The translations under genes and the position numbers were made by a program. A stretch of DNA of 64,000 bases from the sequence record OL960580; one strand, 5' to 3'. The stretch is from Escherichia phage vB_EcoM_SA21RB. Within the stretch, counting starts at the first letter, position 1. Each line of letters opens with the position of its first letter. Shown here one piece after another: positions 1-5,270 of this stretch. The notes beneath the pieces are model-generated. The model did not search any database. It was not told the origin of the DNA and saw only the letters and a program-made list of their open reading frames with translations.

Positions 1-630
<630 letters not shown>

Positions 631-649
<19 letters not shown>

Positions 650-1119
650 TCAGTGATAAAGTTATTTAAATTTTGAGTATATTTCTTTTCATCAAAAATC
701 TTTTGCTGCCTACGTAAACGCCATGGCATTTCAATGAACACGCACCATATTCCTGATAGTACTGCTGCTGTAAAAATATTAACAAGTATGATTAAAAGAA
801 TCCAATCTCCCGTTCTGCCTACTGGACTTTCTCCAAAGAAGCAAAATACAAATGATGTCACAGGAAAACTAATGATATACCACAGAATAACCTTCTTATC
901 TGTGAACCAATCAGCGTTCGTTAATTTAGCGCGACCATTATGAATACACACGAATTTATCATCTGTTGCAGTAGATGGCTTAACTGGTTGATATCCCATT
1001 CTAAACTCCCTAATCAGCAAATTTTTCATATCTTCGGAACAGCCGCTCCAGTCAACTCTATCGACTGAAATGCCATCGTCCCCATCATCTAAATCATACC
1101 AGCGAGTTTTTAAAATCAT
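631..1119 (-). CDS. hypothetical membrane protein, two predicted TM helices, C-terminal FITECRK motif (position of T4 e.2)
   Basis: ORF track; hydrophobic segments; stop overlaps downstream start. Confidence 0.6.
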
Positions 1120-1490
1120 TTGATTTTCCTACAATCACTCACAAACTCTTTCATTGATTCATTTTCAATATAAGACATGTAGTTATTATATTCTTTTAAT
1201 TGTATTTTGTAATCCTTTTTTCTTTGCCAATTTATTTTAAAATTATCATAATGAAAATATAAAATGATACTAAAGAATGAAAATAATGAAATTGCTATAG
1301 TATAATGAAGTTCACTCCAAACTTCTATTATATCTACTATACCGCTGACGTTACTGCGGATGTTTAAAATAATACAGTCAATCATTAATCCAATAAGACT
1401 ACCAGCAAGAGCTGCAGCCAACGCCACAGCAAAAATTAAAAATGACTCAGAAAAAGAATATTTGACTTTATTTAGTTTTGGCTTTTGCAT
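1116..1490 (-). CDS. hypothetical membrane protein, two predicted TM helices, C-terminal FVSDCRK motif (position of T4 e.3)
   Basis: ORF track; hydrophobic segments; ATGA overlap with next gene. Confidence 0.6.
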   Translation of the reverse strand: MQKPKLNKVKYSFSESFLIFAVALAAALAGSLIGLMIDCIILNIRSNVSGIVDIIEVWSELHYTIAISLFSFFSIILYFHYDNFKINWQRKKDYKIQLKEYNNYMSYIENESMKEFVSDCRKIK

Positions 1491-1864
1491 CGTGATTCCT
1501 TAACAAATTTCATAATTTCATTAAATTCATACATATTTAGTTTAAGCTGGTGTTCCTTTTTAATCTTTTTACACTGTGCTTTCCAATCACGTACGCGTTT
1601 ACGATAATGTCTTCCTTGATACCAGTATCCTACCCAATTTACAGGTACTAATAAAAGTGGAACTATTAATGGAAGAATTAGCATTAATACAAGTATTTCG
1701 CCAGAATCAATATCAGTCATAACATCTAAAACACCTCCAATAATCAATAGAATTACAAATGATATGAGTATAACAGGACCTATTAATACATCAGTAGAAA
1801 TTATCTGACGCTTTAATTCATACTTCAACGGTTTACTTGGAAGGTATAGTGATGGTTTTGACAT
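1472..1864 (-). CDS. hypothetical membrane protein, two predicted TM helices, C-terminal FVKESR motif (position of T4 e.4)
   Basis: ORF track (1472..1885); the track start is a TTG; ATG at 1864 preceded by AAGGAA SD is the likelier start. Confidence 0.55.
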   Translation of the reverse strand: MSKPSLYLPSKPLKYELKRQIISTDVLIGPVILISFVILLIIGGVLDVMTDIDSGEILVLMLILPLIVPLLLVPVNWVGYWYQGRHYRKRVRDWKAQCKKIKKEHQLKLNMYEFNEIMKFVKESRCKSQN

Positions 1865-2441
1865 ATTCTCTGCATTCCTTAACAAATTTTTCTAATAATA
1901 AATCGCTTTCAAAATTGGGATTTTCTACGAATTTATCAAAAAGATCATCAACAATAGTTAAGATATTCTTTTTACTAAGAATACGTTTATTTTCATGCTT
2001 CGTTTCAGAATCAACTATAAGAGTAAAGAAATATTTCTTGCCCTGAAATTTTACAGTAGTATCAATATAAAATAAATTTGACTTTTGTAAATTACGTTTA
2101 AACCATGCGTCACTTAAACTATAAACACCGAGATAATCATAATCGTCGTTTAAATAACAGACCGTCCATTCAGGGGAAACGAAATCAGTAAATTCAACGT
2201 CAAAATCGCATGTTAATAAATGAATTGATTCAATACTGTTAATAAGTATTCCAGGACGTATTAAAGACTTTTTACCTCTGGAAAATCTTCCATAAAGACT
2301 TTCATCAGTTTCATATGAAGAACCCCAATAATAATTACGTCCTTCTGCCATACGTTTAAGAGCATTTAGTAATTGGTCTGGAACATCAACTTGTCTTTGG
2401 AATTCTTCAAACATTGAATTGAAATCACTTTGCATTTTCAT
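1833..2441 (-). CDS. hypothetical soluble protein with C-terminal FVKECR motif (position of T4 e.5)
   Basis: ORF track; overlaps downstream gene start. Confidence 0.6.
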   Translation of the reverse strand: MKMQSDFNSMFEEFQRQVDVPDQLLNALKRMAEGRNYYWGSSYETDESLYGRFSRGKKSLIRPGILINSIESIHLLTCDFDVEFTDFVSPEWTVCYLNDDYDYLGVYSLSDAWFKRNLQKSNLFYIDTTVKFQGKKYFFTLIVDSETKHENKRILSKKNILTIVDDLFDKFVENPNFESDLLLEKFVKECREYVKTITIPSK

Positions 2442-2482: not shown

Positions 2483-3076
2483 TTATTTCAGAGAATTAAT
2501 ATATTCCTGAACATCGGCAGAGGTAGTTTCAACCCCAGAAATATTGCCATTAAAGGTTTCAACTCGGGCAAGAGTATCTTCAATATCAACCTTAGTCAGC
2601 GCTGCAATTTCAACTACATCATCAGCAGTACTAATTCCGAGGGCATTCGCAGCACGAGTTTCACGGATATATTCCAATTTAACTGCAAGTTCTTGGCGAG
2701 CATCATCTAACTCAACTACTTTCTTGGCGATTTCAATTCGCATTTCAGCATAACCATCAGCTTTAGTAGTCAACTGCTCAGCTGTTCGACGATATAGTAA
2801 ACCAAGTTTAGCATGCATTGTTACATCTTGACCTTCAGAAAGAAGTTTACGAATTTCACGCTCTTTTGATTCGGCTTGTCGATTCTTTTCGATAACAAGT
2901 TCACGAATACGTTTTTCTTCATTAATAGATTTAACAGAAGCAGTTTTTAGATCTTTAATTTTATCAAGCAGTTTTGCTGCTGCAGCAGTATACTGTTCTT
3001 CAACAGATAGATTTTTAGCCATAGCAGAACCAAGTTTAGTGCGAATAAACTCAACAATTTTCTTCAGTGTGTTCAT
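2483..3076 (-). CDS. hypothetical coiled-coil protein (position of T4 e.6)
   Basis: ORF track; heptad-rich K/E/A/L composition. Confidence 0.6.
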
Positions 3077-3151
3077 AGTATTTCCTTAGGTTAATTGAGA
3101 TTTAAAATCCGTTGGAGTATTATATCTTGTTCTCCGAGGGGTGTAAACACG

Positions 3152-4108: not shown

Positions 4109-4672
4109 TTATTTATCTAGTTTAGTTATTATAGCTTCTGCGGCAGCTTTTAGCTTAGATGCGGTGTTAATACGATTTTTAATTTCAGTATACGCATCGC
4201 CAAGAACATCAAGGCTATCAGAATAAACACTTACACTATTGCGTTCGCTATTTGAAATAGAACCTTTAGTTTTACGATCAAAATCGGTGTACACGTCTTG
4301 AAGATCACGGGCTGCCTTCTTTGCATCATCCAATGCGTCAAGAGCTTTATTCAAAGCATTAACGTATTTTTTAGTGTCAAACATATTCTTAGAAATTTTA
4401 ACAGGTGCGCGTTCAGGAGTAGCTAATGTAGATTTAGGAACCTGAGCGCCAGATGCCAATTTCTTAGAAATTTTGAAAAACGCTTTATTGAATTTATTTT
4501 CTTGACTCATCGTAAAAGAACTATTATCGATGTTGTACATTTCAATAGCTTTAGCTTTCCACTTAAGAAAATCGCCGCGGTCTTTTGGGTCCAAGTGGAA
4601 GAATACTTTAGTAAGATCTGCTTCAGATGGTAATTTTGCTGCTTCGGTTAAAAATTCGGCATAGGTTTTCAT
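4109..4672 (-). CDS. capsid internal protein with N-terminal capsid targeting sequence (IPIII-like)
   Basis: ORF track; N-terminus MKTYAEFLTE matches the T4 internal-protein leader cleaved by gp21 after L-x-E; AAGGA SD. Confidence 0.6.
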   Translation of the reverse strand: MKTYAEFLTEAAKLPSEADLTKVFFHLDPKDRGDFLKWKAKAIEMYNIDNSSFTMSQENKFNKAFFKISKKLASGAQVPKSTLATPERAPVKISKNMFDTKKYVNALNKALDALDDAKKAARDLQDVYTDFDRKTKGSISNSERNSVSVYSDSLDVLGDAYTEIKNRINTASKLKAAAEAIITKLDK

Positions 4673-4796: not shown

Positions 4797-5270
4797 TTAT
4801 TTGATTTGTTTAGCAGACCAAATGCGGTCTTTGATGATTTTTTGAATGTCTTCAACATACTCTAGGTCATGAGCATGTGGGTTATCTTTGAAACTATAGG
4901 CACGGGCTAACTTTTGGCCTTCGGTTTTGATTACTAAAAGCTCTTTAAGGATAGCTTCATACTTAGCGATAATTCCTTTAACAATATTTTTTTCTTGTGT
5001 AGCTTTAGGATCTGCTTTAGGAGCAGGTTTACCCGAAGCCTTTGCAAAAGCAGCACCAGTAGCAACTAAACTTTTCCAGGCCATACTAACCGCATTTCCC
5101 GTAAATCCTTCTGCTTTCATGTCGCGAGCAAATTGGAATCGTGATTCGTCAGAAGCATCTTTATAGGAATATTTACCTGCTGCAATGGCTGCTTTTGCGA
5201 CAGCTTGAATTTCGGTGCTAGATGCTTCATTTAACACCGCTTCATTTAAAAATTGAGCATATGATTTCAT
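4797..5270 (-). CDS. capsid internal protein with capsid targeting sequence, Ala/Lys-rich basic cargo
   Basis: ORF track; N-terminus MKSYAQFLNE (leader-like); late promoter and AGGAAA SD upstream. Confidence 0.55.
   Translation of the reverse strand: MKSYAQFLNEAVLNEASSTEIQAVAKAAIAAGKYSYKDASDESRFQFARDMKAEGFTGNAVSMAWKSLVATGAAFAKASGKPAPKADPKATQEKNIVKGIIAKYEAILKELLVIKTEGQKLARAYSFKDNPHAHDLEYVEDIQKIIKDRIWSAKQIK

Follow-up and report, generated by a model that had tools for sequence, protein, structure and literature searches.

A shared C-terminal tail at the overlapping junctions of the e.2 to e.5 genes of a T4-like phage

The stretch of DNA analyzed here (hereafter the window) comprises 64,000 nucleotides from Escherichia phage vB_EcoM_SA21RB (sequence record OL960580) and belongs to a Tequatrovirus (T4-like) genome. 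Its first 3.6 kb is matched in 696 phage records, in 439 of which a single match covers at least 80% of this 3.6-kb query. The minus strand of this region carries, in the direction of transcription, e.6, a hairpin, e.5, e.4, e.3, e.2, nudE, and the start of the lysozyme gene e. The order and position of these genes are those of the T4 annotation, and the genomes of FJ1 and T2 were also compared. Between e.5 and nudE there is no intergenic space at all, and the four proteins encoded by e.2, e.3, e.4, and e.5 all carry the C-terminal motif F-[VI]-x-[ED]-[CS]-R. In the reading that we favor with moderate confidence, what unites these four genes is not a common protein body but one C-terminal module that does three jobs, serving as a peptide, as a translation signal, and as a recombination substrate.

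On the evidence of profile matches and map position, the four open reading frames (ORFs) are orthologues of the T4 early genes e.2, e.3, e.4, and e.5. The e.5 orthologue (1833-2441; all four lie on the minus strand) occupies the T4 map position, matches PHROG 2607 (E = 2.6e-108), and encodes a soluble protein of 202 amino acids, or possibly of 200 if translation begins at an alternative ATG at 2435. It is followed by e.4 (1472-1864, with its ATG at 1864; PHROG 2604, E = 6.3e-71) and e.3 (1116-1490; PHROG 2330, E = 1.6e-61), for which two-helix membrane proteins of 130 and 124 amino acids are predicted, and then by e.2 (631-1119; PHROG 2203, E = 3.7e-79). All four PHROG profiles are matched end to end. 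The window proteins share 83-100% identity with proteins in many Tequatrovirus genomes, and the e.5 orthologues in the RB69 group are 46% identical. The e.2 gene of the window is intact and encodes 162 amino acids; the copy in T4 itself is frameshifted to 102. The T4 entries for e.2 to e.5 (NP_049738-NP_049741) are labelled "conserved hypothetical, predicted membrane protein", the name e.3 is the one used in the PP01 and RB69 records, and precomputed Pfam labels on homologues are PF26896 for e.2 and PF26873 for e.4. The RNAs of e.2 to e.5 are classed as early in T4, and all four proteins have been given a proteome time class (PMC9697503, supplement). These classes, together with the PHROG matches, indicate that e.2 to e.5 are real, expressed genes.

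The four are thus already known hypothetical genes. We found no published study of them in a literature search, no match above the curated cut-off in local Pfam, NCBIfam, and PADLOC, and no match with E<0.2 in the PDB. The same four databases gave no sequence match between e.2-e.5 and membrane families of anti-defence, superinfection exclusion, or lysis control. Homologues of e.3 and e.4 are named "sulfurtransferase" in a set of NCBI records (P0020, P0023, P0043, P0046, P0047, P0063, P0111, P0129, and P0130), mostly from Shigella, Salmonella, and E. coli assemblies that evidently hold phage contigs. Nothing in the sequences of these homologues backs that name.

An earlier note, made from the letters of the window, had called attention to four consecutive minus-strand ORFs with the motif F-[VI]-x-[ED]-[CS]-R at their C-termini, and translation and a six-frame scan both recover these tails. 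The motif reads FITECR in e.2 (643-660), FVSDCR in e.3 (1128-1145), FVKESR in e.4 (1490-1507), and FVKECR in e.5 (1869-1886), in each case on the minus strand. In e.4 the next R-C codons, CGA TGC, hold the start codon of e.3, and the e.4 start codon lies within the TAT GTC that follows the motif of e.5. The C-termini are EFVSDCRKIK for e.3 (feature tail MKEFVSDCRKIK), KFVKESRCKSQN for e.4 (feature tail IMKFVKESRCKSQN), and KFVKECREYVKTITIPSK for e.5 (feature tail LEKFVKECREYVKTITIPSK). The tails are as the note gave them, with two details to correct: the motif of e.5 stands 11 residues ahead of the stop, and the cysteine of e.4 follows the arginine (ESRC) rather than lying within the motif.

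In a six-frame translation of the entire 64 kb, F[VIL]x[ED][CS]R occurs exactly four times, each time at the C-terminus of one of the proteins of e.2 to e.5. Mononucleotide shuffles of the window yield 0.79 matches overall, of which 0.02 lie close to the stop of a long ORF, a comparison that is post hoc because the pattern was built from the four tails themselves. The cysteine form of the motif is likewise found only in e.2 to e.5 within the T4 sequence scanned, which comprised coordinates 1-72,000 and 119,000-168,903, with the window substituted for T4 72-119 kb. The tail is real and non-random, and it can be described as a shared module in which an amphipathic helix ends with Phi-x-x-F-[IV]-x-[ED]-C-R-[KE], where Phi is a hydrophobic residue.

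A fifth bearer of the tail, RB69ORF133c, is present only in Mosigvirus. This protein has 101 amino acids and two transmembrane (TM) helices, and it ends in LENFIKECRGK. Its gene is located about 2 kb downstream of e.3 (L016 5009-5314; also L003 7211-7516 and L011 5644-5949) and precedes a 228-amino-acid gene, the next ATG being one base past its stop. Scans of IMG/VR returned few loci, six for e.4 and five for the motif pattern. A metagenome scan for FIKECRK followed by TGA returned 20 stretches, nearly all of them chance matches in very short ORFs, and revealed no new tail bearers outside T4-like phages. On two of the metagenome contigs (L025 2307-2330 and L036 6250-6273), a protein that we judged by eye to be HigB/RelE-like ends in AEAFIKECRK, with the ATGA start of a 111-amino-acid gene downstream. 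The body of this protein is unrelated to those of e.2-e.5, and its ending is probably a chance match, as the scan selected for the pattern.

All four junctions at which the tails lie are overlaps, and their lengths are 4 nt at e.2/nudE, 4 nt at e.3/e.2, 19 nt at e.4/e.3, and 32 nt at e.5/e.4. The ATGA type of overlap that had been ascribed to every junction therefore applies to e.3/e.2 and e.2/nudE but not to the two longer ones. At three of the junctions a Shine-Dalgarno-like AGGAAA or AAGGAA precedes the next ATG by 5-7 nt, and at e.5/e.4 by about 10 nt, in agreement with the proposal that the junctions are translation-initiation regions. Because codons of the tail supply AGGAAA or AAGGAA before three of the four starts, the sequence has two uses. 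The overlaps would also give translational coupling, as far as the arrangement of the genes can tell. The gene that follows the block, nudE (194-634, minus strand), encodes a Nudix hydrolase (Pfam NUDIX, E = 3.8e-13; T4 annotation), and its start is ambiguous (634-649, minus strand). The T4 record uses an upstream ATG within GAATGC, the E-C codons of the e.2 tail, and obtains 151 amino acids. Other records begin at the ATGA start and obtain 146, with the Shine-Dalgarno-like AGGAAA 7 nt upstream.

The nucleotides of the junctions are themselves repeated, as the earlier note had observed for two pairs of junctions. The first repeat has one copy, TGCAGGAAATTAAAATGA (631-648, minus strand), that spans the e.2 tail, the Shine-Dalgarno-like sequence, and the nudE start, and a second, TGTAGGAAAATCAAATGA (1116-1133, minus strand), that spans the e.3 tail, the Shine-Dalgarno-like sequence, and the e.2 start. 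These two are the sole exact matches to TGYAGGAAAWTHAAATGA, and they are identical at 15 of 18 bases; the 19-nt consensus given previously had one A too many. The second repeat is exact. Its sequence, AAATTTGTTAAGGAAT, covers the e.4 tail with the Shine-Dalgarno-like sequence for e.3 (1495-1510, minus strand) and the e.5 tail with that for e.4 (1874-1889, minus strand), where 0.27 matches would be expected with up to two mismatches. Our site scan found neither promoter- nor terminator-like sites at any junction. Junction RNAs fold no better than shuffles (z -1.0 to +1.7) and have no match in Rfam, and on these two grounds we rejected RNA structure as the explanation of the junctions.

Three of the four proteins had been described as having two hydrophobic helices followed by a basic stretch, and Kyte-Doolittle profiles with 19-residue windows agree. 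Two hydrophobic segments each are present in e.2, e.3, and e.4, followed by the basic stretches WRLRRQQK, NWQRKKDYK, and GRHYRKRVRDWK, respectively. The TM segments lie at about residues 15-43 and 61-79 in e.3 and about residues 25-47 and 57-82 in e.4. However, e.5 has no hydrophobic segment, so the description of the array as membrane proteins throughout does not hold. The e.2 protein consists of a conserved N-terminal domain, two TM helices, a long cytoplasmic helix, and the tail. In its AlphaFold2 model (pLDDT 74), TM1 spans residues 71-96, and one continuous helix from 103 to 161 forms both TM2 and a cytoplasmic extension that ends in the tail. Apart from its own family, a Foldseek search of viral structures with this model brought up two unnamed small proteins at E ~1e-3 and nothing else. 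For e.5, AlphaFold2 from a single sequence reached a pLDDT of 41, which is too poor for use. Proteins e.2, e.3, and e.4 are thus predicted to be small and to cross the inner membrane twice, with a basic stretch next to the membrane and then a cytoplasmic helix of about 30 residues. Given the basic juxtamembrane stretch, both of their ends are probably cytoplasmic.

Do the four genes form a single tandemly duplicated membrane-protein family, as the earlier note supposed? Smith-Waterman comparisons of the window proteins against shuffles give z = 5 for e.3/e.4, z = 4 for e.2/e.3, and null results for the other pairs. With orthologues added (e.3, e.4, and e.5 of the RB69 group, e.2 of Dhakavirus and Kanagawavirus, and distant e.2 proteins at 25-37% identity), z scores of 4-6 between genes drop to 2.5 or less after the 14 C-terminal residues are cut. 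The best cross-gene alignments produced by hhalign pair one tail with another in register (P = 2e-6 to 6e-4). Realignment after removal of the 14 C-terminal residues (22 in e.5) leaves a weak N-terminal match of e.3 with e.4 (residues 1-44, P = 0.003) and one between the basic stretches of e.2 and e.4 (P = 0.015), with nothing for any other pair. Similarity between genes among e.2, e.3, e.4, and RB69ORF133c is likewise limited to the last 10-18 residues. As judged from these alignments, the common element is a C-terminal module of 10-18 residues, which a soluble protein carries too. Because only the weak e.3/e.4 resemblance outlives the trimming, and because e.5 is soluble, one tandemly duplicated family is not demonstrated for e.2-e.5, and whole-gene paralogy is possible for e.3 and e.4.

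A looser version of the same idea is that e.2, e.3, and e.4, together with RB69ORF133c, descend from one two-TM gene, and that the tail is the most constrained remnant of bodies that have otherwise diverged. In all four of these proteins, two TM helices lead into a basic stretch and then, through a helix of about 30 residues, to the tail, although in e.2 about 75 amino acids form an additional N-terminal domain, and e.5 has no TM helix. In addition to their weak N-terminal alignment and the full-length z = 4-5, e.3 and e.4 both begin with M-x-K-P-x-L, and e.3 weakly matches the PHROG of e.4 (E = 0.008). The e.5/e.4 and e.4/e.3 junctions are alike over about 45 nt that include the first codons of the next gene, and a natural, in-frame e.4::e.2 chimera exists on five contigs. 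However, nothing significant outside the tail connects e.2 with e.3 or e.4, or RB69ORF133c with any of them, and both Pfam and PHROG hold the genes as separate families. Furthermore, duplication of a membrane-protein gene cannot account for the same tail on soluble e.5. We therefore regard common descent as unlikely, albeit the alternative that retains the most weight. A protein from Edwardsiella phage PEi26, ORF-135 (L005 2053-2481; 142 amino acids), has two TM helices and an e.2-like RLRRQNR stretch but no tail. It scores z = 4.7 against the e.2 protein of Dhakavirus and z = 3.1 after tail trimming, and so it may be related to the membrane core of e.2 while lacking the tail.

The junctions were also proposed to be recombination points, and comparison of genomes supports this. 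Gene e.2 is precisely absent from Ozark, ZN18, T2, PP01, UFV-AREG1, T4_ev151, T4_ev240, and other phages. Ozark and ZN18 possess a hybrid e.3 tail that is of the e.3 type through GATTG and of the e.2 type from CAGGAAATTAAAATGAAAAC on, which places the crossover within the shared TGYAGGAAA. Of the 60 best records for a 301-nt probe of this hybrid junction, at least 38 match it without interruption, T2, PP01, UFV-AREG1, T4_ev151, and T4_ev240 among them; where e.2 is present, the match is split into two pieces that together span about 785 nt. Likewise, when T2 is aligned with T4 by BLAST, the match breaks into two segments, which have 22 nt of T2 sequence in common at the junction. By tblastn at 60% identity or more, e.2 is found in 447 records and e.3, e.4, and e.5 in 498-503, so about one Tequatrovirus in ten lacks e.2. 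Several e.3 variants occur among the e.2-less genomes, and each is present in e.2-bearing genomes as well, which hints at repeated events. We considered T4_ev151 as a laboratory e.2 deletion of T4 and rejected this, because it is only 94-95% identical to T4 here and is thus a natural e.2-less phage rather than a de novo event. No precise deletion of e.4 between the two copies of AAATTTGTTAAGGAAT was noticed, and e.3, e.4, and e.5 occur in almost the same number of records.

Fusion and exchange have left traces as well. The e.4::e.2 chimera, seen in UFV05 and UFV06, is joined in frame at the microhomology TCCTGT within the first TM helix. Two observations are signs of exchange between junctions: the ending CRK[LI]K is present on both e.2 and e.3 only in Tequatrovirus (relatives elsewhere end in CRK), and the tail DNAs of e.5 and e.4 are identical at 16 of 16 nt in Tequatrovirus, whereas in the RB69 group they agree at only about 11 of 16. 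Other rearrangements were encountered in the same genes. In ZN18 (L009/L014) a frameshift closes e.5 after 147 codons. An internal deletion of e.3 on an RB69-group contig (L011/L019) leaves a 33-codon remnant with the tail. Short ENA contigs encode P0097 (97 amino acids), in which the e.4 N-terminus to GPVILIS is joined to an HTH_11-like sequence, and P0203 (83 amino acids), in which an unrelated N-terminal sequence is joined to the e.2 tail. Either these proteins mark both ends of a foreign insertion that separates e.4 from e.2, or they may be assembly chimeras.

Such events raise the possibility that the junction is primarily a mobile stretch of 25-45 nt, comprising the tail end, Shine-Dalgarno sequence, and start, that is spread and homogenized by recombination or gene conversion and is grafted onto any gene that lands in the region. 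Conservation of the peptide would then be secondary. The exact agreement over 16 nt between the tails of e.5 and e.4, the CRK[LI]K extension that e.2 and e.3 have in common in a single lineage, the loss of e.2 precisely at the repeat, and the presence of the tail on a non-homologous soluble protein would all fit. There is also a precedent for shuffling by cassettes in other hyperplastic regions of T4-type phages, namely the PeSL (promoter-early plus stem-loop) elements (PMC2839356). However, the e.2 tail is conserved in Dhakavirus and Kanagawavirus, where the locus holds no second copy to act as donor, and the pattern of synonymous divergence favors constraint on amino acids over the copying of DNA. 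The FIKECRK-TGA scan of metagenomes, moreover, gave no bearers beyond T4-like phages. Spread of the DNA as the main cause of the shared tails therefore seems doubtful to us.

Several observations indicate instead that the peptide itself is maintained. In e.2 relatives at 25-37% identity, F154, I155, C158, and R159 are invariant, as is part of the N-terminal domain, and the TM helices are not conserved. Column entropy is lowest in the tail (0.38 bits versus 0.75-1.13 elsewhere for e.2, and 0.06 versus 0.29-1.09 for e.4). Tail residues are retained across lineages through changes of codon (TTT/TTC, ATC/ATT/GTT/GTG, TGC/TGT, and AGG/AGA/CGT/CGA), and in Dhakavirus the Shine-Dalgarno-like sequence has shifted from the R-K codons to the E-E codons. 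Hydrophobic residues are spaced i, i+3, i+4, i+7 in 15 of 15 tails, with one located three positions ahead of the phenylalanine, and conservation reaches upstream of the Shine-Dalgarno sequence. At 46 other ATGA junctions in T4 and the window, upstream tails are diverse, and only a terminal lysine is enriched.

These findings bear on a simple alternative, in which the tail has no peptide role and its nucleotides are conserved only as the Shine-Dalgarno sequence, the spacer, and the start of the next gene. Every tail does overlap the initiation region of the next gene, codons for K, E, and R are Shine-Dalgarno-like by nature, and a terminal K (AAA TGA) is found at 17 of the 46 T4 ATGA junctions. 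Furthermore, the cysteine of e.4 is dictated by the e.3 ATG, and the unrelated HigB-like toxin from metagenomes, so judged by eye, ends in AFIKECRK with the ATGA start of the next gene. We consider this by-product explanation the least probable of all, because the Shine-Dalgarno sequence lies downstream of the conserved F-[IV] and of the hydrophobic residue three positions ahead of it, the arginine is kept while its codon varies (AGG/AGA/CGT/CGA) and the Shine-Dalgarno sequence relocates, the motif is absent at the 46 other ATGA junctions, and the junction RNAs lack conserved structure and Rfam matches. The earlier note had allowed for similarity confined to residues forced by an overlapping ribosome-binding site. 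The similarity is indeed confined to the tail, but codon changes, invariance at 25-37% identity, conservation further upstream, and the diversity of the 46 other tails argue that the ribosome-binding site does not by itself dictate the tail. It therefore seems reasonable to infer that the tail peptide is kept by selection on the protein.

We return to the proposal that one C-terminal module does three jobs. As a peptide, it would most likely be a shared docking or oligomerization helix, through which soluble e.5 and the membrane proteins would assemble together or bind one common partner. As a translation signal, the purine-rich codons AAR GAR TGY AGR AAR give the next gene its Shine-Dalgarno sequence. 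The arrangement of these elements is evident from the sequence, and because the next start is a few bases downstream of the Shine-Dalgarno sequence or overlaps the stop, the genes would be translationally coupled. The third job, as a recombination substrate, is the one that genome comparison shows. With the same 16-22 nt recurring at successive junctions, recombination would cleanly remove a gene and leave the tail and start site intact, and it would also homogenize the junctions within a lineage. An overlapping block of genes, a shared and constrained helix end, start signals within the DNA of the tail, and junctions that are sites of precise loss and in-frame fusion are the established parts of this proposal.

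Several points weigh against it. The e.4 protein departs from the motif, with S or I replacing C, and its nearby cysteine is imposed by the start codon of e.3, which overlaps it. The Shine-Dalgarno-like sequence of e.5/e.4, about 10 nt before the ATG, is poorly spaced. The tail is sometimes frameshifted away, as in 97-amino-acid forms of e.3, the truncated e.2 of T4, and the truncated e.5 of ZN18, so the genes are dispensable and the tail is not indispensable. Docking or oligomerization is purely our conjecture, translational coupling is deduced from gene arrangement, and the direction of the e.2 event, as deletion rather than insertion, is taken from parsimony.

A bolder idea is that the tail is the docking peptide of several T-even early proteins, with three or four membrane anchors and e.5 either forming one inner-membrane complex or competing for one partner, which might be a host protein. 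At the same time, the coding DNA of the tail would be a portable start-site and recombination cassette, a coding counterpart of the PeSL elements. If true, genes of this sort could be gained, lost, or joined in frame by way of the cassette. The Phi-x-x-F-Phi of the tail, followed by basic residues, recalls the C-terminal tail of FtsZ (IPAFLRK), which binds FtsA and ZipA. We think this extended version improbable as a whole.

The remaining features of the locus lie at its upstream edge and beyond. A G+C-rich hairpin (2462-2477), located by the site scan and by sequence, separates e.6 from e.5 and marks the upstream edge of the overlapping block. Gene e.6 itself (2483-3076, minus strand) is positioned as in T4. 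Upstream of it is a sigma-70-like promoter, TTTACA-17-TATAAT (3119-3147, minus strand), which matches the consensus at 11 of 12 positions and, as a consensus match only, is the likeliest source of an early transcript through the block. Also on the minus strand, adjacent genes at 4109-4672 and 4797-5270 encode proteins of 187 and 157 amino acids with the N-termini MKTYAEFLTEAAK and MKSYAQFLNEAV, and a terminator-like hairpin precedes each gene. These N-termini presumably resemble the capsid-targeting N-terminus of T4 internal head proteins.

A second array of neighbors with a shared C-terminus is present in the RB69 group rather than in the window. Directly after e.3 (L003 4790-5584; L016 2857-3652), three tandem genes encode small proteins of 101, 90, and 65 amino acids. 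Right before the stop, these proteins have the motif G-W-V-[SA]-S-S-x-x-C (WVSSSALC, WVASSHTC, and WVSSSYSC). In RB69 itself, the first gene of the trio is split.

How do the e.2-e.5 junctions relate to known systems? The closest are the PeSL cassettes of T4-type phages, each of which combines an early promoter with a stem-loop (Arbiol et al. 2010, PMC2839356; Comeau et al. 2014, PMC4122927). In both cases, short repeated expression signals flank small accessory genes in a hyperplastic region and provide homology for the clean excision or insertion of single genes. However, PeSL elements are intergenic and contain a promoter, a stem-loop, and a Shine-Dalgarno sequence, whereas the repeats of e.2-e.5 encode a peptide, join overlapping genes, and have neither promoter nor stem-loop. 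Thus, the features that define a PeSL element are lacking at these junctions, but the exact absence of e.2 is PeSL-type behavior, with recombination between repeats and precise gain or loss of the enclosed gene.

Stop/start overlaps of the ATGA type are common in the early regions of T4. Like the e.2-e.5 junctions, the 46 that we compared have the downstream Shine-Dalgarno sequence inside the 3′ end of the upstream gene. They have no common peptide motif, however, whereas the four junctions of e.2-e.5 share one that extends 8-10 codons upstream of the Shine-Dalgarno sequence. Imm, Sp, RI, RIII, and Ac are also small, early, non-essential inner-membrane accessory proteins of T-even phages, and they have known roles. 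We found no sequence relationship of these proteins to e.2-e.5 in Pfam, NCBIfam, PADLOC, or the PDB, and none carries the tail motif in the T4 scan. Databases hold the four T4 proteins as unrelated families and record no shared tail, and our literature search turned up no paper that describes either the shared tail or a loss of e.2 mediated by the junctions. The feature is modestly novel, on well-known but uncharacterized genes, and it does not amount to a new kind of system.

Decades of work on T4 have left about half of its genes without a known function, e.2 to e.5 among them. A tail that is carried by soluble and membrane proteins alike is a concrete experimental handle on four of these genes. 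The junctions also represent a second route, besides PeSL cassettes, for the clean gain, loss, and fusion of accessory genes in T-even phages, one in which the repeat is coding sequence and contains the start site of the next gene. Moreover, they explain a difference among the classic phages, in that T2 is without e.2 and T4 has a broken copy of it.

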